A DNA stretch of 64,000 bases from Eledone cirrhosa (GCA_964016885.1 OZ024743.1:35588001-35652000); one strand, 5' to 3'; shown: positions 31,422 to 64,000, counted from the stretch's first letter. Numbers and translations: made by a program. The notes: generated by a model not told the origin, from the letters alone.

Positions 31422-31469
<48 letters not shown>

Positions 31470-31474
<5 letters not shown>

Positions 31475-31800
31475 TATGTACACGTACATACATATATGTA
31501 TACAGACGTACAGTAGTATGTATATTTATATACATACATGCACACATATATATATGTACGTATGGATTCACCGAACATTTATTATAATGCTCGGTGTGTT
31601 TGTAAACAAACATCCCGTATTAAGCCGTAGTGTCTAGCAACCATCGTTGCTCGTTTGTTCAACACTGACAAAAGAACGCTGTACTAGTTTCAAGCTTATT
31701 AGCTATCGTCAGCAGCGTATACCTTCTTGCCAGATTGTTGAACGTATATACTTACCTTATGCATATTAACGGCTGAGTAGCCCAATTTGCACATCGAGTG
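31470..31800 (-). mobile_element. HHR-bearing short element ending in (TA)n; related to 13040-13200
   Basis: Shares GTACGTATGG...CCGAACATTTATTA...GCAACCATCGT with the reverse complement of 13040-13200. Confidence 0.65.
31676..31718 (-). ncRNA. Minimal type I hammerhead ribozyme
   Basis: Minus strand ACGCTG-CTGACGA-TAGCTAATAAGCTT-GAAAC-TA-GTA-CAGCGT: 6-bp stem I, AGCT/AGCT stem II, palindromic ACTAGT stem III. Confidence 0.8.
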
Positions 31801-34691: not shown

Positions 34692-34720
<29 letters not shown>

Positions 34721-34729
<9 letters not shown>

Positions 34730-35440
34730 GATCGAGTATCGAAAAATCGGCGCACGAGTTCACGATAAACAATATTCGAAATGAGCGGCAGAGGGCTCAA
34801 TAATTCAGATGAATCAGAGCTATAACAATCGTTAAAATACCGTCACATATAGAACAAGTCTACAATCAACCATACGATAAAAAATCGATAATAGAAGATT
34901 CGGGACAAACAGATAAAAAATATCAATAAAACAATACATCAATAATTTAAATGAATGTAAAATCATACCCGGACCCACTAGAAAGGTGTTAAATCTAGCT
35001 TCTTGGGTTTCTGTAAATCCTTAGACTGTACTCTATCAGCTCACATATAAATATAAAAGCCTACTAGAGCAAGAGGAACGGAGTTTACTTCATCAACGAG
35101 CTTTTTTCCTAGCGGATAAGGGGCTAACCACCAGTGAAAAACGCACATGGCATTAGACAAGGGAGATAACCTCTACATCCGCGAAAACTATTCGAGGAAA
35201 TGTGGAAATACACATATCGAATAAGAGTGCTCAATAGACATGTTAAAATAAAACAAAAGCTATTCATCACTCAATAGAATCGACAAAAAATGAGCAATAA
35301 AATTAACTGGTGGATAGCTATGTCCAGAGCTAAAAATATTAGAAAGATCGAGTATCGAAAAATCGGCGCACGAGTTCACGATAAACAATATTCGAAATGA
35401 GCGGCAGAGGGCTCAATAATTCAGATGAATCAGAGCTATA
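34721..35440. mobile_element. Element with 104-bp identical terminal direct repeats (616-bp period) in (TA)n
   Basis: 34721-34824 equals 35337-35440; both ends abut TA runs. Confidence 0.75.
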
Positions 35441-35654
35441 TATATATATATATGCATATTTGCATGAGAGAGCAATGCAGAGAAGCAGGAACAAGCTGAA
35501 ACTCCACTATCTTTCTACTACTAGCAAAACCAACAATAATAACAACAACAATAGTACCAAAAACCATCACGGTGAGACCATAACAATAAGAAGAAAGTTA
35601 ACAATAGCAATATTTAAATCAACACTGAACAAAGCATTTGAACTGGACTACTTA

Positions 35655-38600
35655 AAACACCACACTGTGTCATTACTATAATGTGAAGACCTGTAATATA
35701 TAGAAACACTACACTGTGTCATTACTATAATGTGAAGACCTGTAAGATATAGAAACACTACACTGTATCATTACTATACTGTGAAGACCTGTAAGATATA
35801 GAAACACTACACTGTGTCATTACAATAATGTGAAGACCTGTAATATATAGAAACACTACACTGTGTCATTACTATAATGTGAAGACCTGTAATATATAGA
35901 AACACTACACTGTGTCATTACTATACTGTGAAGACCTGTAAGATATAGAAACACTACACTGTGTCATTACTATACTGTGAAGACCTGTAAGACATAGAAA
36001 CACTACGCTGTATCATTACAATACTGTGAAGACCTGTAATATATAGAAACACTACACTGTGTCATTACTATACTGTGAAGACCTGTAAGATATAGAAACA
36101 CTACAATGTGTCATTACTATACTGTGAAGATCTGTAAGACATAGAAACACTACACTGTATCATTACTATACTGTGAAGACCTGTAAGATATAGAAACACT
36201 ACACTGTGTCATTACTATACTGTGAAGACCTGTAAGGTATAGAAACACTACACTGTGTCATTACTATACTGTGAAGACCTGTAAGACATACACAAAAATT
36301 CACTGTATCATTACTATACTGTGAAGACCTGTAAGATATAGAAACACTACACTGTGTCATTACTATACTCTGAAGACCTGTAAGATATAGAAACACTACA
36401 CTGTATCATTACTATACTGTGAAGACCTGTAAGATATAGAAACACTACACTGTGTCATTACTATACTGTGAAGACCTGTAATATATAGAAACACTACACT
36501 GCGTCATTACTATACTCTGAAGACCTGTAATATATAGAAACACTACACTTTGTCATTACTATACTGTGAAGACCTGTAAGATATAGAAACACTACACTGT
36601 GTCATTACTATACTGTGAAGACCTGTAAGATATAGAAACACTACACTCTGTCATCACTATACTCTGAAAATCTGTAAGATATAGAAACACTACACGGTGT
36701 CATAACTATACTCTGAAGACCTGTAAGATATAGAAACACTACACTGTATCATTACTATAATGTGAAGACCTGTAAGATATAGAAACACTACACTGTGTCA
36801 TAACTATACTCTGAAGACCTATAAGACATAGAAACACTACACTGTGTCATTACTATACTGTGAAGACCTGTAATATATAGAAACACTACACTGTGTCATT
36901 ACTATACTGTGAAGACCTGTAATATATAGAAACACTACACTGTGTCATTACTATAATCTGAAGACCTATAATATATAGAAACACCACACTGTGTCATTAC
37001 TATACTCTGAAGACCTGTAAGATATAGAAACACTACACTGTATCATTACTATACTGTGAAGACCTGTATGATATAGAAACACTACACTGTGTCATTACTA
37101 TACTGTGAAGACCTGTAGGATATAGAAACACTACACTGTGTCATTACTATACTGTGAAGAACTATAATATATAGAAACACTACACTGTATCACTACTATA
37201 CTGTAAAGACCTGTAAGATATAGAAACACTACACTGTGTCATTACTATACTGTGAAGACCTGTAAGATATAGAAACACTACACTGTGTCATTACTATACT
37301 GTGAAGACCTGTAAGATATAGAAACACTACACTGTGTCATTACTATAATGTGAAGACCTGTAATATATAGAAACACTACACTGTGTCATTACTATACTGT
37401 GAAGACCTGTAAGATATAGAAACACTACACTGTGTCATTACTATAATGTGAAGACCTGTAATATATAGAAACATTACACTGTGTCATTACTATAACGTGA
37501 AGACCTGTAATATATAGAAACACTACACTGTGTCATTACTATAATGTGAAGACCTGTAATATATAGAAACACTACACTGTGTCATTACTATAATGTGAAG
37601 ACCTGTAAGATATAGAAACACTACACTGTATCATTACTATACTGTGAAGACCTGTAAGATATAGAAACACTACACTGTATCATTACTATACTGTGAAGAC
37701 CTTTGAGATATAGAAACACTACACTGTATCATTACTATACTCTGAAGACCTGTAAGATATAGAAACACTACACTGTGTCATTACTATAATGTGAAGACCT
37801 GTAATATATAGAAACACTACACTGTGTCATTACTATAATGTGAAGACCTGTAATATATAGAAACACTACACTGTGTCATTACTATACTGTGAAGACCTGT
37901 AAGATATAGAAACACTACACTGTGTCATTACTATACTGTGAAGACCTGTAAGACATAGAAACACTACACTGTATCATTACTATACTGTGAAGACCTGTAA
38001 GATATAGAAACACTACACTGTGTCATTACTATACTGTGAAGACCTGTAAGATATAGAAACACTACACTGTGTCATTACTATACTGTGAAGACATGTAATA
38101 TATAGAAACACTACACTGTGTCATTACTATACTCTGAAGACCTGTAATATATAGAAACACTACACTGTGTCATTACTATACTCTGAAGACCTATAATATA
38201 TAGAAACACTACACTGTATCATTACGATACTGTGAAGACCTGTAATATATAGAAACACTACACTTTGTCATTACTATAATGTGAAGACCTGTAATATATA
38301 GAAACACTACACTGTATCATTACTATACTGTGAAGACCTGTAAGATATAGAAACACTACACTGTGTCATTACAATAATGTGAAGACCTGTAATATATAGA
38401 AACACTACACTGTGTCATTACTATAATGTGAAGACCTGTAATATATAGAAACACTACACTGTGTCATTACTATAATGTGAAGACCTGTAAGATATAGAAA
38501 CACTACACTGTATCATTACTATACTGTGAAGACCTGTAAGATATAGAAACACTACACTGTGTCATTACAATAATGTGAAGACCTGTAATATATAGAAACA

Positions 38601-41600
38601 CTACACTGTGTCATTACTATAATGTGAAGACCTGTAATATATAGAAACACTACACTGTGTCATTACTATACTGTGAAGACCTGTAAGATATAGAAACACT
38701 ACACTGTGTCATTACTATACTGTGAAGACCTGTAAGATATAGAAACACTACACTGTATCATTACTATAATGTGAAGACCTGTAATATATAGAAACACTAC
38801 ACTGTGTCATTACTATACTGTGAAGACCTGTAAGGTATAGAAACACTACACTGTATCATTACTATACTGTGAAGACCTGTAAGATATAGAAACACTACAC
38901 TGTGTCATTACTATACTGTGAAGACCTGTAAGGTATAGAAACACTACACTGTGTCATTACTATACTGTGAAGACCTGTAAGACATACACAAAAATTCACT
39001 GTATCATTACTATACTGTGAAGACCTGTAAGATATAGAAACACTACACTGTGTCATTACTATACTCTGAAGACCTGTAAGATATAGAAACACTACACTGT
39101 ATCATTACTATACTGTGAAGACCTGTAAGATATAGAAACACTACACTGTGTCATTACTATACTGTGAAGACCTGTAATATATAGAAACACTACACTGCGT
39201 CATTATTATACTCTGAAGACCTGTAATATATAGAAACACTACACTTTGTCATTACTATACTGTGAAGATCTGTAAGATATAGAAACACTACACTGTGTCA
39301 TTACTATACTGTGAAGACCTGTAAGATATAGAAACACTACACTCTGTCATCACTATACTCTGAAAATCTGTAAGATATAGAAACACTACACTGTGTCATA
39401 ACTATACTCTGAAGACCTGTAAGATATAGAAACACTACACTGTATCATTACTATAATGTGAAGACCTGTATGATATAGAAACACTACACTGTGTCATAAC
39501 TATACTCTGAAGACCTATAAGACATAGAAACACTACACTGTGTCATTACTATACTGTGAAGACCTGTAATATATAGAAACACTACACTGTGTCATTACTA
39601 TACTGTGAAGACCTGTAATATATAGAAACACTACACTGTGTCATTACTATACTCTGAAGACCTATAATATATAGAAACACCACACTGTGTCATTACTATA
39701 CTCTGAAGACCTGTAAGATATAGAAACACTACACTGTATCATTACTATACTGTGAAGACCTGTATGATATAGAAACACTACACTGTGTCATTACTATACT
39801 GTGAAGACCTGTAGGATATAGAAACACTACACTGTGTCATTACTATACTGTGAAGAACTATAATATATAGAAACACTACACTGTATCATTACTATACTGT
39901 AAAGACCTGTAAGATATAGAAACACTACACTGTGTCATTACTATACTGTGAAGACCTGTAAGATATAGAAACACTACACTGTGTCATTACTATACTGTGA
40001 AGACCTGTAAGATATAGAAACACTACACTGTGTCATTACTATAATGTGAAGACCTGTAATATATAGAAACACTACACTGTGTCATTACTATACTGTGAAG
40101 ACCTGTAAGATATAGAAACACTACACTGTGTCATTACTATAATGTGAAGACCTGTAATATATAGAAACATTACACTGTGTCATTACTATAACGTGAAGAC
40201 CTGTAATATATAGAAACACTACACTGTGTCATTACTATAATGTGAAGACCTGTAATATATAGAAACACTACACTGTGTCATTACTATAATGTGAAGACCT
40301 GTAAGATATAGAAACACTACACTGTATCATTACTATACTGTGAAGACCTGTAAGATATAGAAACACTACACTGTATCATTACTATACTGTGAAGACCTTT
40401 GAGATATAGAAACACTACACTGTATCATTACTATACTCTGAAGACCTGTAAGATATAGAAACACTACACTGTGTCATTACTATAATGTGAAGACCTGTAA
40501 TATATAGAAACACTACACTGTGTCATTACTATAATGTGAAGACCTGTAATATATAGAAACACTACACTGTGTCATTACTATACTGTGAAGACCTGTAAGA
40601 TATAGAAACACTACACTGTGTCATTACTATACTGTGAAGACTTGTAAGACATAGAAACACTACACTGTATCATTACTATACTGTGAAGACCTGTAAGATA
40701 TAGAAACACTACACTGTGTCATTACTATACTGTGAAGACCTGTAAGATATAGAAACACTACACTGTGTCATTACTATACTGTGAAGACCTGTAATATATA
40801 GAAACACTACACTGTGTCATTACTATACTCTGAAGACCTGTAATATATAGAAACACTACACTGTGTCATTACTATACTCTGAAGACCTATAATATATAGA
40901 AACACTACACTGTATCATTACGATACTGTGAAGACCTGTAATATATAGAAACACTACACTTTGTCATTACTATAATGTGAAGACCTGTAATATATAGAAA
41001 CACTACACTGTATCATTACTATACTGTGAAGACCTGTAAGATATAGAAACACTACACTGTGTCATTACAATAATGTGAAGACCTGTAATATATAGAAACA
41101 CTACACTGTGTCATTACTATAATGTGAAGACCTGTAATATATAGAAACACTACACTGTGTCATTACTATAATGTGAAGACCTGTAAGATATAGAAACACT
41201 ACACTGTATCATTACTATACTGTGAAGACCTGTAAGATATAGAAACACTACACTGTGTCATTACAATAATGTGAAGACCTGTAATATATAGAAACACTAC
41301 ACTGTGTCATTACTATAATGTGAAGACCTGTAATATATAGAAACACTACACTGTGTCATTACTATACTGTGAAGACCTGTAAGATATAGAAACACTACAC
41401 TGTGTCATTACTATACTGTGAAGACCTGTAAGATATAGAAACACTACACTGTATCATTACTATAATGTGAAGACCTGTAATATATAGAAACACTACACTG
41501 TGTCATTACTATACTGTGAAGACCTGTAAGGTATAGAAACACTACACTGTGTCATTACTATACTGTGAAGACCTGTATGATATAGAAACACTACACTGTG

Positions 41601-44600
41601 TCATTACTATACTGTGAAGACCTGTAGGATATAGAAACACTACACTGTGTCATAACTATACTCTGAAGACCTGTAAGATATAGAAACACTACACTGTATC
41701 ATTACTATAATGTGAAGACCTGTAAGATATAGAAACACTACACTGTGTCATAACTATACTCTGAAGACCTATAAGACATAGAAACACTACACTGTGTCAT
41801 TACTATACTGTGAAGACCTGTAATATATAGAAACACTACACTGTGTCATTACTATACTGTGAAGACCTGTAATATATAGAAACACTACACTGTGTCATTA
41901 CTATACTCTGAAGACCTATAATATATAGAAACACCACACTGTGTCATTACTATACTCTGAAGACCTGTAAGATATAGAAACACTACACTGTATCATTACT
42001 ATACTGTGAAGACCTGTATGATATAGAAACACTACACTGTGTCATTACTATACTGTGAAGACCTGTAGGATATAGAAACACTACACTGTGTCATTACTAT
42101 ACTGTGAAGAACTATAATATATAGAAACACTACACTGTATCATTACTATACTGTAAAGACCTGTAAGATATAGAAACACTACACTGTGTCATTACTATAC
42201 TGTGAAGACCTGTAAGATATAGAAACACTACACTGTGTCATTACTATACTGTGAAGACCTGTAAGATATAGAAACACTACACTGTGTCATTACTATAATG
42301 TGAAGACCTGTAATATATAGAAACACTACACTGTGTCATTACTATACTGTGAAGACCTGTAAGATATAGAAACACTACACTGTGTCATTACTATACTCTG
42401 AAGACCTGTAATATATAGAAACACTACACTGTGTCATTACTATACTCTGAAGACCTATAATATATAGAAACACTACACTGTATCATTACGATACTGTGAA
42501 GACCTGTAATATATAGAAACACTACACTTTGTCATTACTATAATGTGAAGACCTGTAATATATAGAAACACTACACTGTATCATTACTATACTGTGAAGA
42601 CCTGTAAGATATAGAAACACTACACTGTGTCATTACAATAATGTGAAGACCTGTAATATATAGAAACACTACACTGTGTCATTACTATAATGTGAAGACC
42701 TGTAATATATAGAAACACTACACTGTGTCATTACTATAATGTGAAGACCTGTAAGATATAGAAACACTACACTGTATCATTACTATACTGTGAAGACCTG
42801 TAAGATATAGAAACACTACACTGTGTCATTACAATAATGTGAAGACCTGTAATATATAGAAACACTACACTGTGTCATTACTATAATGTGAAGACCTGTA
42901 ATATATAGAAACACTACACTGTGTCATTACTATACTGTGAAGACCTGTAAGATATAGAAACACTACACTGTGTCATTACTATACTGTGAAGACCTGTAAG
43001 ATATAGAAACACTACACTGTATCATTACTATAATGTGAAGACCTGTAATATATAGAAACACTACACTGTGTCATTACTATACTGTGAAGACCTGTAAGGT
43101 ATAGAAACACTACACTGTGTCATTACTATACTGTGAAGACCTGTATGATATAGAAACACTACACTGTGTCATTACTATACTGTGAAGACCTGTAGGATAT
43201 AGAAACACTACACTGTGTCATAACTATACTCTGAAGACCTGTAAGATATAGAAACACTACACTGTATCATTACTATAATGTGAAGACCTGTAAGATATAG
43301 AAACACTACACTGTGTCATAACTATACTCTGAAGACCTATAAGACATAGAAACACTACACTGTGTCATTACTATACTGTGAAGACCTGTAATATATAGAA
43401 ACACTACACTGTGTCATTACTATACTGTGAAGACCTGTAATATATAGAAACACTACACTGTGTCATTACTATACTCTGAAGACCTATAATATATAGAAAC
43501 ACCACACTGTGTCATTACTATACTCTGAAGACCTGTAAGATATAGAAACACTACACTGTATCATTACTATACTGTGAAGACCTGTATGATATAGAAACAC
43601 TACACTGTGTCATTACTATACTGTGAAGACCTGTAGGATATAGAAACACTACACTGTGTCATTACTATACTGTGAAGAACTATAATATATAGAAACACTA
43701 CACTGTATCATTACTATACTGTAAAGACCTGTAAGATATAGAAACACTACACTGTGTCATTACTATACTGTGAAGACCTGTAAGATATAGAAACACTACA
43801 CTGTGTCATTACTATACTGTGAAGACCTGTAAGATATAGAAACACTACACTGTGTCATTACTATAATGTGAAGACCTGTAATATATAGAAACACTACACT
43901 GTGTCATTACTATACTGTGAAGACCTGTAAGATATAGAAACACTACACTGTGTCATTACTATAATGTGAAGACCTGTAATATATAGAAACATTACACTGT
44001 GTCATTACTATAACGTGAAGACCTGTAATATATAGAAACACTACACTGTGTCATTACTATAATGTGAAGACCTGTAATATATAGAAACACTACACTGTGT
44101 CATTACTATAATGTGAAGACCTGTAAGATATAGAAACACTACACTGTATCATTACTATACTGTGAAGACCTGTAAGATATAGAAACACTACACTATCATT
44201 ACTATACTGTGAAGACCTTTGAGATATAGAAACACTACACTGTATCATTACTATACTCTGAAGACCTGTAAGATATAGAAACACTACACTGTGTCATTAC
44301 TATAATGTGAAGACCTGTAATATATAGAAACACTACACTGTGTCATTACTATAATGTGAAGACCTGTAATATATAGAAACACTACACTGTGTCATTACTA
44401 TACTGTGAAGACCTGTAAGATATAGAAACACTACACTGTGTCATTACTATACTGTGAAGACCTGTAAGACATAGAAACACTACACTGTATCATTACTATA
44501 CTGTGAAGACCTGTAAGATATAGAAACACTACACTGTGTCATTACTATACTGTGAAGACCTGTAAGATATAGAAACACTACACTGTGTCATTACTATACT

Positions 44601-47600
44601 GTGAAGACCTGTAATATATAGAAACACTACACTGTGTCATTACTATACTCTGAAGACCTGTAATATATAGAAACACTACACTGTGTCATTACTATACTCT
44701 GAAGACCTATAATATATAGAAACACTACACTGTATCATTACGATACTGTGAAGACCTGTAATATATAGAAACACTACACTTTGTCATTACTATAATGTGA
44801 AGACCTGTAATATATAGAAACACTACACTGTATCATTACTATACTGTGAAGACCTGTAAGATATAGAAACACTACACTGTGTCATTACAATAATGTGAAG
44901 ACCTGTAATATATAGAAACACTACACTGTGTCATTACTATAATGTGAAGACCTGTAATATATAGAAACACTACACTGTGTCATTACTATAATGTGAAGAC
45001 CTGTAAGATATAGAAACACTACACTGTATCATTACTATACTGTGAAGACCTGTAAGATATAGAAACACTACACTGTGTCATTACAATAATGTGAAGACCT
45101 GTAATATATAGAAACACTACACTGTGTCATTACTATAATGTGAAGACCTGTAATATATAGAAACACTACACTGTGTCATTACTATACTGTGAAGACCTGT
45201 AAGATATAGAAACACTACACTGTGTCATTACTATACTGTGAAGACCTGTAAGATATAGAAACACTACACTGTATCATTACTATAATGTGAAGACCTATAA
45301 TATATAGAAACACTACACTGTGTCATTACTATACTGTGAAGACCTGTAAGGTATAGAAACACTACACTGTGTCATTACTATACTGTGAAGACCTGTAAGA
45401 CATACACAAAAATTCACTGTATCATTACTATACTGTGAAGACCTGTAAGATATAGAAACACTACACTATCATTACTATACTGTGAAGACCTTTGAGATAT
45501 AGAAACACTACACTGTATCATTACTATACTCTGAAGACCTGTAAGATATAGAAACACTACACTGTGTCATTACTATAATGTGAAGACCTGTAATATATAG
45601 AAACACTACACTGTGTCATTACTATAATGTGAAGACCTGTAATATATAGAAACACTACACTATCATTACTATACTGTGAAGACCTTTGAGATATAGAAAC
45701 ACTACACTGTATCATTACTATACTCTGAAGACCTGTAAGATATAGAAACACTACACTGTATCATTACTATAATGTGAAGACCTGTATGATATAGAAACAC
45801 TACACTGTGTCATAACTATACTCTGAAGACCTATAAGACATAGAAACACTACACTGTGTCATTACTATACTGTGAAGACCTGTAATATATAGAAACACTA
45901 CACTGTGTCATTACTATACTGTGAAGACCTGTAATATATAGAAACACTACACTGTGTCATTACTATACTCTGAAGACCTATAATATATAGAAACACCACA
46001 CTGTGTCATTACTATACTCTGAAGACCTGTAAGATATAGAAACACTACACTGTATCATTACTATACTGTGAAGACCTGTATGATATAGAAACACTACACT
46101 GTGTCATTACTATACTGTGAAGACCTGTAGGATATAGAAACACTACACTGTGTCATTACTATACTGTGAAGAACTATAATATATAGAAACACTACACTGT
46201 ATCATTACTATACTGTAAAGACCTGTAAGATATAGAAACACTACACTGTGTCATTACTATACTGTGAAGACCTGTAAGATATAGAAACACTACACTGTGT
46301 CATTACTATACTGTGAAGACCTGTAAGATATAGAAACACTACACTGTGTCATTACTATAATGTGAAGACCTGTAATATATAGAAACACTACACTGTGTCA
46401 TTACTATACTGTGAAGACCTGTAAGATATAGAAACACTACACTGTGTCATTACTATAATGTGAAGACCTGTAATATATAGAAACATTACACTGTGTCATT
46501 ACTATAACGTGAAGACCTGTAATATATAGAAACACTACACTGTGTCATTACTATAATGTGAAGACCTGTAATATATAGAAACACTACACTGTGTCATTAC
46601 TATAATGTGAAGACCTGTAAGATATAGAAACACTACACTGTATCATTACTATACTGTGAAGACCTGTAAGATATAGAAACACTACACTGTATCATTACTA
46701 TACTGTGAAGACCTTTGAGATATAGAAACACTACACTGTATCATTACTATACTCTGAAGACCTGTAAGATATAGAAACACTACACTGTGTCATTACTATA
46801 ATGTGAAGACCTGTAATATATAGAAACACTACACTGTGTCATTACTATAATGTGAAGACCTGTAATATATAGAAACACTACACTGTGTCATTACTATACT
46901 GTGAAGACCTGTAAGATATAGAAACACTACACTGTGTCATTACTATACTGTGAAGACTTGTAAGACATAGAAACACTACACTGTATCATTACTATACTGT
47001 GAAGACCTGTAAGATATAGAAACACTACACTGTGTCATTACTATACTGTGAAGACCTGTAAGATATAGAAACACTACACTGTGTCATTACTATACTGTGA
47101 AGACCTGTAATATATAGAAACACTACACTGTGTCATTACTATACTCTGAAGACCTGTAATATATAGAAACACTACACTGTGTCATTACTATACTCTGAAG
47201 ACCTATAATATATAGAAACACTACACTGTATCATTACGATACTGTGAAGACCTGTAATATATAGAAACACTACACTTTGTCATTACTATAATGTGAAGAC
47301 CTGTAATATATAGAAACACTACACTGTATCATTACTATACTGTGAAGACCTGTAAGATATAGAAACACTACACTGTGTCATTACAATAATGTGAAGACCT
47401 GTAATATATAGAAACACTACACTGTGTCATTACTATAATGTGAAGACCTGTAATATATAGAAACACTACACTGTGTCATTACTATAATGTGAAGACCTGT
47501 AAGATATAGAAACACTACACTGTATCATTACTATACTGTGAAGACCTGTAAGATATAGAAACACTACACTGTGTCATTACAATAATGTGAAGACCTGTAA

Positions 47601-50600
47601 TATATAGAAACACTACACTGTGTCATTACTATAATGTGAAGACCTGTAATATATAGAAACACTACACTGTGTCATTACTATACTGTGAAGACCTGTAAGA
47701 TATAGAAACACTACACTGTGTCATTACTATACTGTGAAGACCTGTAAGATATAGAAACACTACACTGTATCATTACTATAATGTGAAGACCTGTAATATA
47801 TAGAAACACTACACTGTGTCATTACTATACTGTGAAGACCTGTAAGGTATAGAAACACTACACTGTGTCATTACTATACTGTGAAGACCTGTATGATATA
47901 GAAACACTACACTGTGTCATTACTATACTGTGAAGACCTGTAGGATATAGAAACACTACACTGTGTCATAACTATACTCTGAAGACCTGTAAGATATAGA
48001 AACACTACACTGTATCATTACTATAATGTGAAGACCTGTAAGATATAGAAACACTACACTGTGTCATAACTATACTCTGAAGACCTGTAAGACATAGAAA
48101 CACTACACTGTGTCATTACTATACTGTGAAGACCTGTAATATATAGAAACACTACACTGTGTCATTACTATACTGTGAAGACCTGTAATATATAGAAACA
48201 CTACACTGTGTCATTACTATACTCTGAAGACCTATAATATATAGAAACACCACACTGTGTCATTACTATACTCTGAAGACCTGTAAGATATAGAAACACT
48301 ACACTGTATCATTACTATACTGTGAAGACCTGTATGATATAGAAACACTACACTGTGTCATTACTATACTGTGAAGACCTGTAGGATATAGAAACACTAC
48401 ACTGTGTCATTACTATACTGTGAAGAACTATAATATATAGAAACACTACACTGTATCATTACTATACTGTAAAGACCTGTAAGATATAGAAACACTACAC
48501 TGTGTCATTACTATACTGTGAAGACCTGTAAGATATAGAAACACTACACTGTGTCATTACTATACTGTGAAGACCTGTAAGATATAGAAACACTACACTG
48601 TGTCATTACTATAATGTGAAGACCTGTAATATATAGAAACACTACACTGTGTCATTACTATACTGTGAAGACCTGTAAGATATAGAAACACTACACTGTG
48701 TCATTACTATACTCTGAAGACCTGTAATATATAGAAACACTACACTGTGTCATTACTATACTCTGAAGACCTATAATATATAGAAACACTACACTGTATC
48801 ATTACGATACTGTGAAGACCTGTAATATATAGAAACACTACACTTTGTCATTACTATAATGTGAAGACCTGTAATATATAGAAACACTACACTGTATCAT
48901 TACTATACTGTGAAGACCTGTAAGATATAGAAACACTACACTGTGTCATTACAATAATGTGAAGACCTGTAATATATAGAAACACTACACTGTGTCATTA
49001 CTATAATGTGAAGACCTGTAATATATAGAAACACTACACTGTGTCATTACTATAATGTGAAGACCTGTAAGATATAGAAACACTACACTGTATCATTACT
49101 ATACTGTGAAGACCTGTAAGATATAGAAACACTACACTGTGTCATTACAATAATGTGAAGACCTGTAATATATAGAAACACTACACTGTGTCATTACTAT
49201 AATGTGAAGACCTGTAATATATAGAAACACTACACTGTGTCATTACTATACTGTGAAGACCTGTAAGATATAGAAACACTACACTGTGTCATTACTATAC
49301 TGTGAAGACCTGTAAGATATAGAAACACTACACTGTATCATTACTATAATGTGAAGACCTGTAATATATAGAAACACTACACTGTGTCATTACTATACTG
49401 TGAAGACCTGTAAGGTATAGAAACACTACACTGTGTCATTACTATACTGTGAAGACCTGTATGATATAGAAACACTACACTGTGTCATTACTATACTGTG
49501 AAGACCTGTAGGATATAGAAACACTACACTGTGTCATAACTATACTCTGAAGACCTGTAAGATATAGAAACACTACACTGTATCATTACTATAATGTGAA
49601 GACCTGTAAGATATAGAAACACTACACTGTGTCATAACTATACTCTGAAGACCTATAAGACATAGAAACACTACACTGTGTCATTACTATACTGTGAAGA
49701 CCTGTAATATATAGAAACACTACACTGTGTCATTACTATACTGTGAAGACCTGTAATATATAGAAACACTACACTGTGTCATTACTATACTCTGAAGACC
49801 TATAATATATAGAAACACCACACTGTGTCATTACTATACTCTGAAGACCTGTAAGATATAGAAACACTACACTGTATCATTACTATACTGTGAAGACCTG
49901 TATGATATAGAAACACTACACTGTGTCATTACTATACTGTGAAGACCTGTAGGATATAGAAACACTACACTGTGTCATTACTATACTGTGAAGAACTATA
50001 ATATATAGAAACACTACACTGTATCATTACTATACTGTAAAGACCTGTAAGATATAGAAACACTACACTGTGTCATTACTATACTGTGAAGACCTGTAAG
50101 ATATAGAAACACTACACTGTGTCATTACTATACTGTGAAGACCTGTAAGATATAGAAACACTACACTGTGTCATTACTATAATGTGAAGACCTGTAATAT
50201 ATAGAAACACTACACTGTGTCATTACTATACTGTGAAGACCTGTAAGATATAGAAACACTACACTGTGTCATTACTATAATGTGAAGACCTGTAATATAT
50301 AGAAACATTACACTGTGTCATTACTATAACGTGAAGACCTGTAATATATAGAAACACTACACTGTGTCATTACTATAATGTGAAGACCTGTAATATATAG
50401 AAACACTACACTGTGTCATTACTATAATGTGAAGACCTGTAAGATATAGAAACACTACACTGTATCATTACTATACTGTGAAGACCTGTAAGATATAGAA
50501 ACACTACACTATCATTACTATACTGTGAAGACCTTTGAGATATAGAAACACTACACTGTATCATTACTATACTCTGAAGACCTGTAAGATATAGAAACAC

Positions 50601-53600
50601 TACACTGTGTCATTACTATAATGTGAAGACCTGTAATATATAGAAACACTACACTGTGTCATTACTATAATGTGAAGACCTGTAATATATAGAAACACTA
50701 CACTGTGTCATTACTATACTGTGAAGACCTGTAAGATATAGAAACACTACACTGTGTCATTACTATACTGTGAAGACCTGTAAGACATAGAAACACTACA
50801 CTGTATCATTACTATACTGTGAAGACCTGTAAGATATAGAAACACTACACTGTGTCATTACTATACTGTGAAGACCTGTAAGATATAGAAACACTACACT
50901 GTGTCATTACTATACTGTGAAGACCTGTAATATATAGAAACACTACACTGTGTCATTACTATACTCTGAAGACCTGTAATATATAGAAACACTACACTGT
51001 GTCATTACTATACTCTGAAGACCTATAATATATAGAAACACTACACTGTATCATTACGATACTGTGAAGACCTGTAATATATAGAAACACTACACTTTGT
51101 CATTACTATAATGTGAAGACCTGTAATATATAGAAACACTACACTGTATCATTACTATACTGTGAAGACCTGTAAGATATAGAAACACTACACTGTGTCA
51201 TTACAATAATGTGAAGACCTGTAATATATAGAAACACTACACTGTGTCATTACTATAATGTGAAGACCTGTAATATATAGAAACACTACACTGTGTCATT
51301 ACTATAATGTGAAGACCTGTAAGATATAGAAACACTACACTGTATCATTACTATACTGTGAAGACCTGTAAGATATAGAAACACTACACTGTGTCATTAC
51401 AATAATGTGAAGACCTGTAATATATAGAAACACTACACTGTGTCATTACTATAATGTGAAGACCTGTAATATATAGAAACACTACACTGTGTCATTACTA
51501 TACTGTGAAGACCTGTAAGATATAGAAACACTACACTGTGTCATTACTATACTGTGAAGACCTGTAAGATATAGAAACACTACACTGTATCATTACTATA
51601 ATGTGAAGACCTGTAATATATAGAAACACTACACTGTGTCATTACTATACTGTGAAGACCTGTAAGGTATAGAAACACTACACTGTGTCATTACTATACT
51701 GTGAAGACCTGTAAGACATACACAAAAATTCACTGTATCATTACTATACTGTGAAGACCTGTAAGATATAGAAACACTACACTATCATTACTATACTGTG
51801 AAGACCTTTGAGATATAGAAACACTACACTGTATCATTACTATACTCTGAAGACCTGTAAGATATAGAAACACTACACTGTGTCATTACTATAATGTGAA
51901 GACCTGTAATATATAGAAACACTACACTGTGTCATTACTATAATGTGAAGACCTGTAATATATAGAAACACTACACTGTGTCATTACTATACTGTGAAGA
52001 CCTGTAAGATATAGAAACACTACACTGTGTCATTACTATACTGTGAAGACCTGTAAGACATAGAAACACTACACTGTATCATTACTATACTGTGAAGACC
52101 TGTAAGATATAGAAACACTACACTGTGTCATTACTATACTGTGAAGACCTGTAAGATATAGAAACACTACACTGTGTCATTACTATACTGTGAAGACCTG
52201 TAAGATATAGAAACACTACACTGTGTCATTACTATAATGTGAAGACCTGTAAGATATAGAAACACTACACTGTGTCATTACTATACTGTGAAGACCTGTA
52301 AGATATAGAAACACTACACTGTGTCATTACTATAATGTGAAGACCTGTAAGATATAGAAACACTACACTGTGTCATTACTATACTGTGAAGACCTGTAAG
52401 ATATAGAAACACTACACTGTGTCATTACTATACTGTGAAGACCTGTAAGATATAGAAACACTACACTGTGTCATTACTATACTGTGAAGACCTGTAAGAT
52501 ATAGAAACACTACATTGTGTCATTACTATACTGTGAAGACCTGTAATATATAGAAACACTACACTGTGTCATTACTATACTCTGAAGACCTGTAATATAT
52601 AGAAACACTACACTGTGTCATTACTATACTCTGAAGACCTATAATATATAGAAACACTACACTGTATCATTACGATACTGTGAAGACCTGTAATATATAG
52701 AAACACTACACTGCGTCATTACTATACTCTGAAGACCTGTAATATATAGAAACACTACACTTTGTCATTACTATACTGTGAAGACCTGTAAGATATAGAA
52801 ACACTACACTGTGTCATTACTATACTCTGAAGACCTGTAAGATATAGAAACACTACACTGTATCATTACTATTCTGTGAAGACCTGTAAGATATAGAAAC
52901 ACTACACTGTGTCATTACTATACTCTGAAAATCTGTAAAATATAGAAACACTACACTGTGTCATTACTATAGTCTGAAGATCTGTAAGATATAGAAACAC
53001 TACACTGTGTCATTACTATACTGTGAAGACCTGTAATATATAGAAACACCACACTGTGTCATTACTATACTCTGAAGACCTGTAAGATATAGAAACATTA
53101 CACTGTGTAGTTACTATACTCTGAAGACCTGTAAGATATAAAAACACTACACTGTGTCATTACTATACTGTGAAGACCTGTAATATATAGAAACACCACA
53201 CTGTGTCATTACTATACTCTGAAGACCTGTAAGATATAGAAACATTACACTGTGTCATTACTATACTCTGAAGACCTGTAAGATATAAAAACACTACACT
53301 GTGTCATTACTATACTCTGAAGACCTGTAATATATAGAAACACCACACTGTGTCATTACTATACTCTGAAGACCTGTAAGATATAGAAACATTACACTGT
53401 GTCATTACTATACTCTGAAGACCTGTAAGATATAAAAACACTACACTGTGTCATTACTATACTCTGAAGACCTGTAATATATAGAAACACCACACTGTGT
53501 CATTACTATACTCTGAAGACCTGTAAGATATAGAAACATTACACTGTGTCATTACTATACTCTGAAGACTTGTAAGATATAAAAACACTACACTGTGTCA

Positions 53601-56600
53601 TTACTATACTGTGAAGACCTATAATATATAGAAACACTACACTGTGTCATTACTATACTCTGAAGACCTGTAAGATATAGAAACACTACACTGTGTCATT
53701 ACTATACTGTAAAGACCTGTAAGATATAGAAACACTACACTGTATCATTACTATACTGTGAGGACCTGTAAGATATAGAAACACTACACTGTGTCATTAC
53801 TATACTCTGAAGACCTGTAAGATATAGAAACACTAAACTGTGTCATTACTATACTGTGAAGACCTGTAAGATATAGAAACACTACACTGTATCATTACTA
53901 TACTGTGAAGACGTGTAAGATATAGAAACACTACACTGTGTCATTACTATACTCTGAAGACCTGTAAGATATAGAAACACTACACTGTGTCATTACTATA
54001 CTGTGAAGACCTGTAAGATATAGAAACACTACACTGTGTCATTACTATACTGTGAAGACCTGTAAGATATAGAAACACTACACTGTGTCATTACTATAAT
54101 GTGAAGACCTGTAATATATAGAAACACTACACTGTGTCATTACTATACTGTGAAGACCTGTAAGATATAGAAACACTACACTGTATCATTACTATACTGT
54201 GAAGACCTGTAAGATATAGAAACACTACACTGTGTCATTACTATACTCTGAAGACCTGTAAGATATAGAAACACTACACTGTGTCATTACTATACTGTGA
54301 AGACGTGTAAGATATAGAAACACTACACTGTGTCATTACTATACTGTGAAGACCTGTAAGATATAGAAACACTACACTGTATCATTACTATACTGTGAAG
54401 ACCTGTAAGATATAGAAACACTACACTGTATCATTACTATACTGTGAAGACCTTTGAGATATAGAAACACTACACTGTATCATTACTATACTGTGAAGAC
54501 CTGTAAGATATAGAAACACTACACTGTGTCATTACTATACTCTGAAGACCTGTAAGATATAGAAACACTACACTGTGTCATTACTATACTGTAAAGACCT
54601 GTAAGATATAGAAACACTACACTGTATCATTACTATACTGTGAGGACCTGTAAGTTATAGAAACACTACACTGTGTCATTACTATACTCTGAAGACCTGT
54701 AAGATATAGAAACACTAAACTGTGTCATTACTATACTGTGAAGACCTGTAAGATATAGAAACACTACACTGTATCATTACTATACTGTGAAGACGTGTAA
54801 GATATAGAAACACTACACTGTATCATTACTATACTGTGAAGACCTGTAAGATATAGAAACACTACACTGTGTCATTACTATACTCTGAAGACCTGTAAGA
54901 TATAGAAACACTACACCGTGTCATTACTATACTGTGAAGACCTGTAAGATATAGAAACACTACACTGTGTCATTACTATAATGTGAAGACCTGTAATATA
55001 TAGAAACACTACACTGTGTCATTACTATACTCTGAAGACCTGTAAGAGATAGAAACACTCCACTGTATCATTACTATACTGTGAAGACCTGTAAGATATA
55101 GAAACACTACACTGTGTCATTACTATACTGTGAAGACCTGTAAGATATAGAAACACTACACTGTATCATTACTATACTGTGAAGACCTGTAAGATATAGA
55201 AACACTACACTGTGTCATTACTATACTCTGAAGACCTGTAAGATATAGAAACACTACACTGTGTCATTACTATACTGTGAAGACGTGTAAGATATAGAAA
55301 CACTACACTGTATCATTACTATACTGTGAAGACCTGTAAGATATAGAAACACTACACTGTGTCATTACGATACTCTGAAGACCTGTAAGATATAGAAACA
55401 CTACACTGTGTCATTACTATACTGTGAAGACCTGTAAGATATAGAAACACTACACTGTGTCATTACTATACTGTGAATACCTGTAAGATATAGAAACACT
55501 ACACTGTGTCATTACTATAATGTGAAGACCTGTAATATATAGAAACACTACACTGTGTCATTACTATACTGTGAAGACCTGTAAGATATAGAAACACTAC
55601 ACTGTATCATTACTATACTGTGAAGACCTGTAAGATATAGAAACACTACACTGTGTCATTACTATACTCTGAAGACCTGTAAGATATAGAAACACTACAC
55701 TTTGTCATTACTATACTGTGAAGACGTGTAAGATATAGAAACTCTACACTGTGTCATTACTATACTGTGAAGACCTGTAAGATATAGAAACACTACACTG
55801 TATCATTACTATACTGTGAAGACCTGTAAGATATAGAAACACTACACTGTATCATTACTATACTGTGAAGACCTTTGAGATATAGAAACACTACACTGTG
55901 TCATTACTATACTCTGAAGACCTGTAAGATATAGAAACACTACACTTTGTCATTACTATACTGTGAAGACGTGTAAGATATAGAAACTCTACACTGTGTC
56001 ATTACTATACTGTGAAGACCTGTAAGATATAGAAACACTACACTGTATCATTACTATACTGTGAAGACCTGTAAGATATAGAAACACTACACTGTATCAT
56101 TACTATACTGTGAAGACCTTTGAGATATAGAAACACTACACTGTATCATTACTATACTGTGAAGACCTGTAAGATATAGAAACACTACACTGTGTCATTA
56201 CTATAATGTGAAGACCTGTAATATATAGAAACACTACACTGTGTCATTACTATAATGTGAAGACCTGTAATATATAGAAACACTACACTGTGTCATTACT
56301 ATAATGTGAAGACCTGTAATATATAGAAACACTACACTGTGTCATTACTATACTGTGAAGACCTGTAAGATATAGAAACACTACACTGTGTCATTACTAT
56401 ACTGTGAAGACCTGTAAGACATACAAAAAAATTCACTGTATCATTACTATACTGTGAAGACCTGTAAGATATAGAAACACTACACTGTGTCATTACTATA
56501 CTGTGAAGACCTGTAAGATATAGAAACACTACACTGTGTCATTACTATACTGTGAAGACCTGTAAGACATACAAAAAAATTCACTGTATCATTACTATAC

Positions 56601-59600
56601 TGTGAAGACCTGTAAGATATAGAAACACTACACTGTGTCATTACTATACTGTGAAGACCTGTAAGATATAGAAACACTACACTGTGTCATTACTATACTG
56701 TGAAGACCTGTAAGATATAGAAACACTACACTGTGTCATTACTATAATGTGAAGACCTGTAAGATATAGAAACACTACACTGTGTCATTACTATACTGTG
56801 AAGACCTGTAAGATATAGAAACACTACACTGTGTCATTACTATAATGTGAAGACCTGTAAGATATAGAAACACTACACTGTGTCATTACTATACTGTGAA
56901 GACCTGTAATATATAGAAACACTACACTGTGTCATTACTATACTCTGAAGACCTGTAAGATATAGAAACACTACACTGTGTCATTACTATACGCTGAAGA
57001 CCTATAATATATAGAAACACTACACTGTATCATTACGATACTGTGAAGACCTGTAATATATAGAAACACTACACTGTATCATTACTATACTCTGAAGACC
57101 TGTAATATATAGAAACACTACACTTTGTCATTACTATACTGTGAAGACCTGTAAGATATAGAAACACTACACTGTGTCATTACTATACTCTGAAGACCTG
57201 TAATATATAGAAACACTACACTTTGTCATTACTATACTTTGAAGACCTGTAAGATATAGAAACACTACACTGTGTCATTACTATACTCTGAAGACCTGTA
57301 AGGTATAGAAACACTACACTGTGTCATTACTATACTGTGAAGACCTGTAAGATATAGAAACACTACACTGTGTCATTACTATACTGTGAAGACCTGTAGG
57401 ATATAGAAACACTACACTGTGTCATTACTATACTGTGAAGAACTATGATATATAGAAACACTACACTGTGTCATTACTATACTGTAGAGACCTGTAAGAT
57501 ATAGAAACACTACACAGTGTCATTACTATACTCTGAAGACCTGTAAGACATACAAAAAAATTCACTCTATCATTACTATACTGTGAAGACCTGTAAAATA
57601 TAGAAACACTACACTGTGTCATTACTATACTGTGAAGACCTGTAAGATATAGAAACACTACACTGTATCATTACTATACTGTGAAGACCTGTAAGATATA
57701 GAAACACTACACTGTGTCATTACTATACTGTGAAGACCTGTAGTATATAGAAACACTACACTGCGTCATTACTATACTGTGAAGACCTGTAAGATATAGA
57801 AACACTACACTGTGTCATTACTATACTCTGAAGACCTGTAAGATATAGAAACACTACACTGTATCATTACTATACTGTGAAGACCTGTAAGATATAGAAA
57901 CACTACACAGTGTCATTACTATACTCTGAAGACCTGTAAGATATAGAAACACTACACTGTGTCATTACTATACTGTGAAGACCTGTAAGATATAGAAACA
58001 CTACACTGTGTCATTACTATACTGTGAAGACCTGTAGGATATAGAAACACTACACTGTGTCATTACTATACTGTGAAGAACTATGATATATAGAAACACT
58101 ACACTGTGTCATTACTATACTGTAGAGACCTGTAAGATATAGAAACACTACACTGTGTCATTACTATACTGTGAAGACCTGTAATATATAGAAACACCAC
58201 ACTGTGTCATTACTATACTCTGAAGACCTGTAAGATATAGAAACATTACACTGTGTCATTACTATACCCTGAAGACCTGTAAGATATAAAAACACTACAC
58301 TGTGTCATTACTATACTGTGAAGACCTGTAAGATATAGAAACACTACACTGTATCATTACTATACTGTGAAGACGTGTAAGATATAGAAACACTACACTG
58401 TGTCATTACTATACTCTGAAGACCTGTAAGATATAGAAACACTACACTGTGTCATTACTATACTGTGAAGACCTGTAAGATATAGAAACACTACACTGTG
58501 TCATTACTATACTGTGAAGACCTGTAAGATATAGAAACACTACACTGTGTCATTACTATAATGTGAAGACCTGTAATATATAGAAACACTACACTGTGTC
58601 ATTACTATACTGTGAAGACCTGTAAGATATAGAAACACTACACTGTATCATTACTATACTGTGAAGACCTGTAAGATATAGAAACACTACACTGTGTCAT
58701 TACTATACTCTGAAGACCTGTAAGATATAGAAACACTACACTGTGTCATTACTATACTGTGAAGACGTGTAAGATATAGAAACACTACACTGTGTCATTA
58801 CTATACTGTGAAGACCTGTAAGATATAGAAACACTACACTGTATCATTACTATACTGTGAAGACCTGTAAGATATAGAAACACTACACTGTATCATTACT
58901 ATACTGTGAAGACCTTTGAGATATAGAAACACTACACTGTATCATTACTATACTGTGAAGACCTGTAAGATATAGAAACACTACACTGTGTCATTACTAT
59001 ACTGTGAAGACCTGTAAGATATAGAAACACTACACTGTGTCATTACTATACTGTGAAGACCTGTAGTATATAGAAACACTACACTGCGTCATTACTATAC
59101 TGTGAAGACCTGTAAGATATAGAAACACTACACTGTGTCATTACTATACTCTGAAGACCTGTAAGATATAGAAACACTACACTGTATCATTACTATACTG
59201 TGAAGACCTGTAAGATATAGAAACACTACACTGTATCATTACTATACTGTGAAGACCTGTAAGATATAGAAACACTACACAGTGTCATTACTATACTCTG
59301 AAGACCTGTAAGATATAGAAACACTACACAGTGTCATTACTATACTCTGAAGACCTGTAAGATATAGAAACACTACACTGTGTCATTACTATACTGTGAA
59401 GACCTGTAAGATATAGAAACACTACACTGTATCATTACTATACTGTGAAGACCTGTAAGATATAGAAACACTACACAGTGTCATTACTATACTCTGAAGA
59501 CCTGTAAGATATAGAAACACTACACTGTATCATTACTATACTGTGAAGACCTGTAAGATATAGAAACACTACACAGTGTCATTACTATACTCTGAAGACC

Positions 59601-62600
59601 TGTAAGATATAGAAACACTACACTGTGTCATTACTATACTGTGAAGACCTGTAAGATATAGAAACACTACACTGTGTCATTACTATACTGTGAAGACCTG
59701 TAGGATATAGAAACACTACACTGTGTCATTACTATACTGTGAAGAACTATGATATATAGAAACACTACACTGTGTCATTACTATACTGTAGAGACCTGTA
59801 AGATATAGAAACACTACACTGTGTCATTACTATACTGTGAAGACCTGTAATATATAGAAACACCACACTGTGTCATTACTATACTCTGAAGACCTGTAAG
59901 ATATAGAAACATTACACTGTGTCATTACTATACCCTGAAGACCTGTAAGATATAAAAACACTACACTGTGTCATTACTATACTGTGAAGACCTGTAAGAT
60001 ATAGAAACACTACACTGTATCATTACTATACTGTGAAGACGTGTAAGATATAGAAACACTACACTGTGTCATTACTATACTCTGAAGACCTGTAAGATAT
60101 AGAAACACTACACTGTGTCATTACTATACTGTGAAGACCTGTAAGATATAGAAACACTACACTGTGTCATTACTATACTGTGAAGACCTGTAAGATATAG
60201 AAACACTACACTGTGTCATTACTATAATGTGAAGACCTGTAATATATAGAAACACTACACTGTGTCATTACTATACTGTGAAGACCTGTAAGATATAGAA
60301 ACACTACACTGTATCATTACTATACTGTGAAGACCTGTAAGATATAGAAACACTACACTGTGTCATTACTATACTCTGAAGACCTGTAAGATATAGAAAC
60401 ACTACACTGTGTCATTACTATACTGTGAAGACGTGTAAGATATAGAAACACTACACTGTGTCATTACTATACTGTGAAGACCTGTAAGATATAGAAACAC
60501 TACACTGTATCATTACTATACTGTGAAGACCTGTAAGATATAGAAACACTACACTGTATCATTACTATACTGTGAAGACCTTTGAGATATAGAAACACTA
60601 CACTGTATCATTACTATACTGTGAAGACCTGTAAGATATAGAAACACTACACTGTGTCATTACTATAATGTGAAGACCTGTAATATATAGAAACACAACA
60701 CTGTGTCATTACTATACTCTGAAGACCTGTAAGATATAGAAACATTACACTGTGTCATTACTATACTCTGAAGACCTGTAAGATATAAAAACACTACACT
60801 GTGTCATTACTATACTCTGAAGACCTGTAAGATATAAAAACACTACACTGTGTCATTACTATACTGTGAAGACCTATAATATATAGAAACACTACACTGT
60901 GTCATTACTATACTCTGAAGACCTGTAAGATAGAGAAACACTACACTGTGTCATTACTATACTGTAAAGACCTGTAAGATATAGAAACACTACACTGTAT
61001 CATTACTATACTGTGAGGACCTGTAAGTTATAGAAACACTACACTGTGTCATTACTATACTCTGAAGACCTGTAAGATATAGAAACACTAAACTGTGTCA
61101 TTACTATACTGTGAAGACCTGTAAGATATAGAAACACTACACTGTATCATTACTATACTGTGAAGACGTGTAAGATATAGAAACACTACACTGTATCATT
61201 ACTATACTGTGAAGACCTGTAAGATATAGAAACACTACACTGTGTCATTACTATACTCTGAAGACCTGTAAGATATAGAAACACTACACCGTGTCATTAC
61301 TATACTGTGAAGACCTGTAAGATATAGAAACACTACACTGTGTCATTACTATAATGTGAAGACCTGTAATATATAGAAACACTACACTGTGTCATTACTA
61401 TACTCTGAAGACCTGTAAGATATAGAAACACTCCACTGTATCATTACTATACTGTGAAGACCTGTAAGATATAGAAACACTACACTGTGTCATTACTATA
61501 CTGTGAAGACCTGTAAGATATAGAAACACTACACTGTATCATTACTATACTGTGAAGACCTGTAAGATATAGAAACACTACACTGTGTCATTACTATACT
61601 CTGAAGACCTGTAAGATATAGAAACACTACACTGTGTCATTACTATACTGTGAAGACGTGTAAGATATAGAAACACTACACTGTATCATTACTATACTGT
61701 GAAGACCTGTAAGATATAGAAACACTACACTGTGTCATTACTATAATGTGAAGACCTGTAATATATAGAAACACTACACTGTGTCATTACGATACTCTGA
61801 AGACCTGTAAGATATAGAAACACTACACTGTGTCATTACTATACTGTGAAGACCTGTAAGATATAGAAACACTACACTGTGTCATTACTATACTGTGAAT
61901 ACCTGTAAGATATAGAAACACTACACTGTGTCATTACTATAATGTGAAGACCTGTAATATATAGAAACACTACACTGTGTCATTACTATACTGTGAAGAC
62001 CTGTAAGATATAGAAACACTACACTGTATCATTACTATACTGTGAAGACCTGTAAGATATAGAAACACTACACTGTGTCATTACTATACTCTGAAGACCT
62101 GTAAGATATAGAAACACTACACTTTGTCATTACTATACTGTGAAGACGTGTAAGATATAGTAACACTACACTGTGTCATTACTATACTGTGAAGACCTGT
62201 AAGATATAGAAACACTACACTGTATCATTACTATACTGTGAAGACCTGTAAGATATAGAAACACTACACTGTATCATTACTATACTGTGAAGACCTTTGA
62301 GATATAGAAACACTACACTGTATCATTACTATACTGTGAAGACCTGTAAGATATAGAAACACTACACTATGTCATTACTATAATGTGAAGACCTGTAATA
62401 TATAGAAACACTACACTGTGTCATTACTATAATGTGAAGACCTGTAATATATAGAAACACTACACTGTGTCATTACTATAATGTGAAGACCTGTAATATA
62501 TAGAAACACTACACTGTGTCATTACTATACTGTGAAGACCTGTAAGATATAGAAACACTACACTGTGTCATTACTATACTGTGAAGACCTGTAAGACATA

Positions 62601-64000
62601 GAAACACTACACTGTATCATTACTATACTGTGAAGACCTGTAAGACATACAAAAAAATTCACTGTATCATTACTATACTGTGAAGACCTGTAAGATATAG
62701 AAACACTACACTGTGTCATTACTATACTGTGAAGACCTGTAAGATATAGAAACACTACACTGTGTCATTACTATACTGTGAAGACCTGTAAGATATAGAA
62801 ACACTACTCTGTGTCATTACTATACTGTGAAGACCTGTAAGATATAGAAACACTACTCTGTGTCATTACTATACTGTGAAGACCTGTAAGATATAGAAAC
62901 ACTACACTGTGTCATTACTATAATGTGAAGACCTGTAAGATATAGAAACACTACACTGTGTCATTACTATACTGTGAAGACCTGTAAGATATAGAAACAC
63001 TACACTGTGTCATTACTATAATGTTAAGACCTGTAAGATATAGAAACACTACACTTTGTCATTACTATACTGTGAAGACCTGTAATATATAGAAACACTA
63101 CACTGTGTCATTACTATACTCTGAAGACCTGTAAGATATAGAAACACTACACTGTGTCATTACTATACGCTGAAGACCTATAATATATAGAAACACTACA
63201 CTGTATCATTACGATACTGTGAAGACCTGTAATATATAGAAACACTACACTGTATCATTACTATACTCTGAAGACCTGTAATATATAGAAACACTACACT
63301 TTGTCATTACTATACTGTGAAGACCTGTAAGATATAGAAACACTACACTGTGTCATTACTATACTCTGAAGACCTGTAATATATAGAAACACTACACTTT
63401 GTCATTACTATACTGTGAAGACCTGTAAGATATAGAAACACTACACTGTGTCATTACTATACTCTGAAGACCTGTAAGGTATAGAAACACTACACTGTAT
63501 CATTACTATACTGTGAAGACCTGTAAGATATAGAAACACTACACTGTGTCATTACTATACTGTGAAGACCTGTAAGATATAGAAACACTACACTGTGTCA
63601 TTACTATACTGTGAAGACCTGTAGGATATAGAAACACTACACTGTGTCATTACTATACTGTGAAGAACTATGATATATAGAAACACTACACTGTGTCATT
63701 ACTATACTGTAGAGACCTGTAAGATATAGAAACACTACACAGTGTCATTACTATACTCTGAAGACCTGTAAGACATACAAAAAAATTCACTGTATCATTA
63801 CTATACTGTGAAGACCTGTAAAATATAGAAACACTACACTGTGTCATTACTATACTGTGAAGACCTGTAAGATATAGAAACACTACACTGTATCATTACT
63901 ATACTGTGAAGACCTGTAAGATATAGAAACACTACACTGTGTCATTACTATACTGTGAAGACCTGTAGTATATAGAAACACTACACTGCGTCATTACTAT
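35655..64000 (+). repeat. 49-bp tandem satellite, about 580 monomers, with higher-order repeats; monomer has a hammerhead-like fold
   Basis: Consensus GAAGACCTGTAAGATATAGAAACACTACACTGTGTCATTACTATACTGT; runs off the window end. Confidence 0.97.

Follow-up and report, generated by a model that had tools for sequence, protein, structure and literature searches.

The window analysed here, a stretch of 64,000 nucleotides of the Eledone cirrhosa genome, ends in a 49-bp tandem array that starts at position 35655 and occupies the window to its last base, with 578.5 copies and 94% matches according to Tandem Repeats Finder. The neighbouring genome stretches show that the array continues unbroken past the window to a total of 151,726 bp, made up of 3,096 full 49-bp units and one 17-nt partial. 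The earlier note had described a 49-bp satellite beginning at this position; that description is confirmed, for an array of 151.7 kb rather than the 28 kb present in the window. For the counts given below, 3,095 units plus the final one were parsed, and 3,063 of them are exactly 49 nt long. They comprise 350 distinct sequences, and the mean difference between units is 2.7. The features of the array and of its left flank are listed in Table 1.

Table 1. Features of the 49-bp array and its left flank, in window positions.
Feature	Position	Strand	Remarks
Left flank	35560..35657	+	One distant paralog, L237 (C1:426.06 Mb); continuation with 11-nt block common to the unit
First 28 kb of the array, 578 units	35655..64000	+	Continues to G000:C4:35,775,380, ending after the GTC triplet
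Incomplete unit at the array start, from stem III through GTC	35655..35671	+	Left boundary, 1-3 A common to the flank
Linker of first full unit (proposed stem I)	35672..35682	+	At most 4 weak pairs, in TAAT and TAGT variants only
Core segment 3-9	35683..35689	+	This unit G3
Stem II region, 13 nt	35690..35702	+	No G10.1-C11.1; two possible pairings
GAAA, 4-bp stem III and GUC triplet	35703..35720	+	Predicted cut after 35720
Sole window unit with both C3 and TAAT stem I	36947..36995	+	
Unit with C3, intact core and TAGT stem I	52963..53011	+	Among the nine all-stem units

The array is one locus with no dispersed copies. A 25-nt pattern covering the core and stem II, with 3 mismatches allowed, returned 2,994 forward and 0 reverse matches in the whole genome, and all 2,994 are inside the array, as are 2,813 of the 2,815 matches of an 18-nt pattern for stem III. 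The remaining two stem III matches (in L109 and L110) were excluded as relatives of the unit, since the core is absent; the former (L109:3006-3027, C13:40.93 Mb) is a lone 22-nt exact match to stem III and GTC with no core upstream. Among the eight public runs listed, the unit was present at high depth in one, which may derive from the sequenced sample itself, and in traces only in three others, so that the runs yielded no cross-species variants; a 36-nt stretch of the unit gave 0 matches in a metagenome scan.

Several other repeats lie to the left of the array in the window. A 50-bp minisatellite with 17 copies is located at 1008-1866, and positions 20073-31253 (11 kb) consist of simple repeats that are rich in CAC and extremely skewed between the strands. 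On the minus strand at about 31420-31800, with its core at 31712, there is a copy of a dispersed hammerhead family that is also present in L206, L211, L215 and L218. Positions 34720-35440 hold a partial tandem of a 616-bp unit, with a 105-bp exact direct repeat, lying between TA runs; it is 85% like a copy in L187 and resembles an insertion of Penelope or retrozyme type, and an intact core was not found in it. The open frames of the left flank are short or derived from microsatellites.

The motifs that had been named as those of a hammerhead ribozyme (core, GAAA and GUC) are found on the + strand in the stated order. The stem II region can be paired in two ways, either with a 2-nt bulge and four weak pairs or with a C.A mismatch followed by three of four pairs, as in the hammerhead families of the host, and loop III has 6 nt and is non-palindromic. 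The right end of the array, as given by the assembly sequence alone, falls exactly after GTC, the left end falls within stem III, and AAA is present at both junctions. An end at the cut site is a coincidence of about 2 in 49 and is the sole feature of the locus that points to an RNA intermediate.

The monomer had been read as a complete minimal hammerhead, and the unit counts contradict this. The core (CUGANGA, GAAA, UH) is intact in 916 of 3,063 units, or in 2,632 if position 3 is ignored, and is accompanied by a 4-bp stem III in 738 of those 916; in a count over all 3,095 parsed units, 703 retain core and stem III, in consecutive runs of up to five. The bulged stem II is also present in 686 of 3,063, and an intact core together with stems I, II and III in only 9 of 3,063. 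The earlier note had cautioned that most monomers carry GUGAAGA, and this caveat was borne out: G3 occurs in 1,794 of 3,063 units (59%) and C3 in 1,210, with no compensating C8 class. Within the window, 118 of 564 49-mers carry C3, and a single one combines it with a TAAT stem I. In the Anolis Penelope-element hammerhead, C3G abolishes cleavage (PMC11167929). The G10.1-C11.1 pair occurs in none of the 3,063 units, whereas the C.A mismatch followed by three of four symmetric stem II pairs occurs in 2,859; an intact first core segment, GAAA and a fully paired (4/4) symmetric stem II are found together in 55. Stem I reaches four of four weak pairs in 302 units, and the variants that complete it are mostly tied to core damage, TAAT with G3 and TAGT with A9G. 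Variants break stem III in 683 of the 3,063 units and alter A9 in 145. Covariance models did not recover a hammerhead in the array either, as Rfam gave 0 matches reaching the gathering score anywhere in the window, and a search of 3 kb of the array at E<=10 also gave 0; RF00163 matches 18 sites elsewhere in the genome.

The consensus was put through 3,852,294 circular dinucleotide shuffles, and both strands were searched for the order of the core elements with a descriptor based on the unit. The core order with a 4-bp stem III appeared in 1,279 shuffles when C3 was demanded and in 3,039 with any base at position 3, which places this combination in the unit above chance. Adding the bulged stem II reduced the numbers to 74 (C3) and 152 (any base), and adding stem I as well to 0 and 1, these two levels being fitted to the unit post hoc. 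A second descriptor was modelled on the hammerheads of the host, its core pattern being composed after the unit had been seen, and was run on 2,832,201 shuffles. With any base at position 3, 180 of them showed the core, 77 the core and stem III, and 13 also a symmetric stem II; at the full level with C3, 4 passed. The consensus passes this descriptor, and so do 741 of 3,095 units with C3. The hammerhead core order with stem III is therefore rare by chance, with per-unit odds of 5e-6 to 8e-4 depending on the descriptor, and a few chance matches as rare as this are to be expected among very many repeats scanned.

The same host core pattern marks at least 33,567 hammerhead-core sites genome-wide, against 62 for the reversed control, and a hammerhead pattern search gave 69 matches against 1 in the control. 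In the dominant families, U.U, A.A or C.A replaces G10.1-C11.1 and the stem II regions have 12-15 nt, and in several families stem III starts with ACA or ACAC (ACAC/GTGT or ACA/TGT). The commonest family often forms inverted pairs, with the junction located a few bases upstream of the core. Short tandem units with core letters were also detected. In L198:4728-4944 (C20:26.37 Mb), the core of a family B element was duplicated in place to form a 52-bp unit with 4.2 copies, joined at a microhomology with ACTGA in common, which shows how a unit of bare core can originate with no RNA step and provides a model of a birth intermediate. From L193:4201 to L194:5936 (C4:364.67-364.69 Mb), a 48-bp unit, repeated 239 times, combines a core segment with GAAAC and a stem III of 4 bp; stems I and II are absent and position 3 is polymorphic, and this array may be a chance match or a second decayed hammerhead. 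L310 and L311 (C21:25.40 Mb, minus strand) contain a diverged array of about 91 bp per unit with CTGATGA, a 4-bp stem III and GTC, with GAAAC in some units and stems I and II not evident, which may also be a chance match. A loose core pattern was applied to 67 repeat units from 917 kb of DNA that was not a random sample; it matched the 91-bp unit alone and 0 of the reversed controls.

Predicted folding gives the hammerhead structure little weight in the array. For trimers of 14 unit variants, the predicted energy of the hammerhead fold exceeds that of the ensemble by 10-24 kcal/mol, compared with 4.4-14.2 kcal/mol for seven dispersed hammerheads of the genome treated by a similar, crude method; an eighth control, at 69.6 kcal/mol, was excluded as uninformative because it sits inside an inverted pair. 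The predicted probability of stem I in the units is at most 0.018, and the consensus is dominated by a predicted competing hairpin that pairs stem II with the cut-site strand and buries G12 and the cut site. Unit dimers have no folding advantage over shuffles (z -0.06 to -1.18). Variation in the array shows no sign of selection on the core, whose positions are not less variable than other positions with the same base (permutation p = 0.14-0.24). The claim that common variants respect the fold finds no support in this test, and three of the commonest variants strike C3, A9 and stem III. Nearly all units are therefore predicted to be catalytically dead.

DNA and pattern searches, which would miss relatives below about 85% identity, revealed neither a parent of the unit nor a homologous Penelope-element pLTR, and the solitary ancestral hammerhead element whose existence the earlier note had envisaged was not found among the families. 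Families B (57 copies) and D (17) were aligned to the unit and resemble it in stem III only, a match that the search pattern partly forced; neither stem II (p = 0.30-0.58) nor the downstream linker (p = 0.34-0.83) showed significant similarity. Families A, B, D and E were rejected as direct parents, and local BLAST matches in L120, L162, L177 and L026 were isolated and short only.

The sole paralog of the left flank, L237, is supported by a second anchor that was reached in 0 of 20,000 draws of a genomic null. Anchor patterns built from the left flank and L237 match exactly only those two loci, and no further paralogs of L237 were obtained in repeated genome searches. One anchor also matched a cluster in G000:C25, which was discarded as a relative of L237 because it is unrelated beyond the anchor; this cluster (19.1-21.9 Mb, L272-L297) is a large tandem one, with many near-identical copies about 15-25 kb apart. 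About 45 nt past the anchor, L237 carries an 11-nt block that is common to the unit and spans the cut site (77-1,321/20,000 depending on scoring), and this shared sequence favours a birth of the unit in place. For the strand that follows GTC in L237, a complement of 8 bp lies about 40 nt upstream in the register of stem I; with Watson-Crick pairs this was equalled in 131-294 of 20,000 null draws (p 0.007-0.015), and the signal weakens to p = 0.07-0.085 when G-U pairs are allowed. L237 has no intact core, its upstream alignment to the core and stem II of the unit is not significant (p = 0.17-0.85), nor is a downstream extension of the alignment, and its fold is no more stable than those of shuffles (z +0.7 to +1.0). 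The homology of the right flank to L237 is unstable (p 0.005-0.7 across 16 settings).

Two signals within the units bear on their history. The G3 consensus has an internal direct repeat of 10 of 11 positions with 16-nt spacing, equalled in 100 of 3,000 shuffles (p = 0.033; for C3, p = 0.46), a pattern in keeping with growth from subrepeats. Diversity is higher among the C3 units than among the G3 units (3.10 vs 2.31 differences), and an older C3 is weakly favoured. These signals partly cancel.

The order of units recurs at lags of 72-149 units, with exact duplicated blocks of up to 103 units, and the frequencies of variants shift along the array, TAAT falling from about 0.25 at the left to 0 past the middle. 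Block repeats and drifting variant frequencies are the signature of DNA-level duplication in satellite turnover. From the exact block duplications and the variant drift we infer that the array was amplified at the DNA level, and its length, homogeneity and higher-order block duplications are those of a satellite. The array could have begun with a head-to-tail duplication of a short stretch that spanned a ribozyme core; the junction would have fallen within the linker of stem I and have removed most of that stem. Unequal exchange or slippage would later have enlarged it by blocks of about 70-150 units, and mutations, C3G among them, would have spread irrespective of the fold.

We somewhat prefer to regard the array as a single-locus satellite derived from a decayed type I hammerhead, duplicated in place, amplified as DNA and probably inactive, whose source was probably an old Penelope-related or retrozyme-related element. 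Hammerhead ancestry as such, taken over two scenarios, appears likely, since the core order beats the shuffles and matches the architecture of the abundant families of the genome. To this extent the earlier proposal of a satellite amplified from a bare ribozyme is partly supported; a working, self-processing ribozyme is unsupported. Against the decayed-hammerhead origin are the lack of a parent family, the coreless L237 with its non-significant alignment, the internal 16-nt repeat of the G3 consensus and the right end at the cut site, which duplication in place does not explain. A possible but rather doubtful alternative is an ordinary satellite that grew from local AT-rich sequence, in which the hammerhead letters are coincidental and C3 arose from G by mutation at a later time. 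Such a coincidence is consistent with the absence of relatives anywhere in the assembly, the blank Rfam result, the G3 majority with its internal 16-nt repeat, dimers that fold like shuffles, and the 48-bp array, which has core and stem III but no other stem and is maybe a match of this kind. Around GTGTCATTACT, L237 is similar to the unit and the right flank may be as well, yet neither has the core; if the right flank does continue the L237 homology, there would be two coreless relatives and coincidence would gain weight, but that homology varies with the settings. The host-family descriptor sets the per-unit probability of a coincidence at 5e-6 to 6e-5, the genome that holds the match is full of hammerheads with the same uncommon architecture, and short-unit hammerhead repeats recur in it (52 bp, 91 bp), all of which argues against coincidence and for a decayed hammerhead.

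Two further possibilities require an active ribozyme. A 49-nt self-cleaved circular RNA might have been reverse-transcribed and inserted once as a multimer that was then expanded as DNA, like a minimal retrozyme. The end precisely after GTC would suit such an insertion, and the AAA at both junctions could be a 3-bp target duplication, with CTTAAAG in the L237 paralog at the matching point, but the right junction is that of the assembly alone. Retrozymes are dispersed and the 49-bp unit has no second copy or usable stem I, the 11-nt block in L237 favours birth in place, and in the one element studied (PMC11167929), Penelope reverse transcription initiates internally and no reads end at the ribozyme cut. 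We consider this origin improbable. It is even harder to credit that a minority of units still self-cleave and cut read-through transcripts into 49n-nt ladders. The persistence of core and stem III in runs of neighbouring units and the 55 units with a fully paired symmetric stem II are compatible with residual cleavage, and natural hammerheads can possess a very weak or mismatched stem II (PMC3088659). Against it are the predicted energies above the ensemble, 10-24 kcal/mol versus 4.4-14.2 for the seven dispersed hammerheads, the near absence of stem I, the rival hairpin that hides G12 and the cut site, and the lack of a selection signal; in addition, even minimal Penelope hammerheads cleave poorly (PMC4209133), and eight of nine Xenopus dimers showed no cleavage. 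Self-processing into n x 49-nt RNAs, as had been proposed, is unsupported because most units are G3, stem I is almost never formed, selection and dispersed copies are absent and the amplification is DNA-like. A broader version, that this genome breeds near-bare satellites of core and stem III (48, 49, 52 and 91 bp), of which the 49-bp one came from an RNA circle and keeps a cleaving minority, is likewise improbable as a whole.

Non-LTR retrozymes have units of 150-450 bp, with up to 62-mers in coral, in the available part of PMC7229834. The available text of a preprint (10.64898/2026.07.22.740005) gives hammerhead tandem repeats a consensus of 51-972 bp and up to 300 units, and proposes that they originate at the ends of Penelope elements and then expand by unequal crossover; the earlier description of hammerhead repeats as having monomers of a few hundred nucleotides is thus outdated. 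The array is similar to the repeats in these two sources in being AT-rich and head to tail with one hammerhead motif per unit, and differs from what they describe in its unit (49 bp vs 51-972 bp), its 3,096 units (vs at most 300), its single locus without dispersed copies and its lack of a complete fold. Retrozymes are recognised by at least two adjacent complete type I motifs, and here units with an intact core are adjacent but complete folds are limited to the nine units. The array resembles the end stage of the route from Penelope ends through unequal crossover, and it fails as a member of the retrozymes because it shows neither dispersal nor a complete fold.

With the minimal hammerheads of Penelope-like elements, as far as the available part of PMC4209133 describes them, the unit shares the bare core, the absence of tertiary loop contacts, a high sequence variety and, by prediction, a low activity. 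Those hammerheads have a long stem II, a conserved G10.1-C11.1 pair and a palindromic helix III that forms dimers, whereas the unit has a weak stem II, no G-C pair and a non-palindromic loop III, and next to the array there is neither a reverse transcriptase gene nor a pLTR. The unit is also like the 'HHR_core' motifs of Naiads in having catalytic core letters without canonical stems; in the available text of PMC8557442 Naiads are old remnants in cephalopods, and by this analogy a link to a Naiad element might be taken as a lead only. Newt satellite 2, the Schistosoma Sm-alpha and W-elements (PMC8490949, in its available part) and cricket pDo500 are likewise satellite DNA bearing hammerheads, and are reported to have units of hundreds of bases and demonstrated cleavage, whereas the unit of this array consists of the motif alone, in a broken form. 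Families B and D of the same genome have in common with the unit a mismatched 10.1-11.1, a stem II region of 13-15 nt and GAAACACTA...GTGTC as stem III, but their stems I are long, their stems II are rich in G-C with 4 bp, and they show no significant similarity to the unit beyond stem III.

No publication on such a 49-bp unit was found in the literature searched, and the supplementary tables of the preprint could hold comparable units. If the ancestry is true, the array would be a limiting case of the proposed route from transposon ribozyme to satellite, in which the unit is the ribozyme alone, and its 350 natural variants would form a test set for the decay of a hammerhead after release from selection. 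The array is also a warning that motif-based catalogues of retrozymes can count dead or chance motifs by the thousands. The locus would have much greater weight if minor units cleaved or if a 49-nt circle were a transposition intermediate, which the evidence makes unlikely. Compared with the hammerhead repeats in the available parts of the papers considered here, the 49-bp unit is shorter than the shortest (51 bp) and about ten times more amplified than the longest (300 units).
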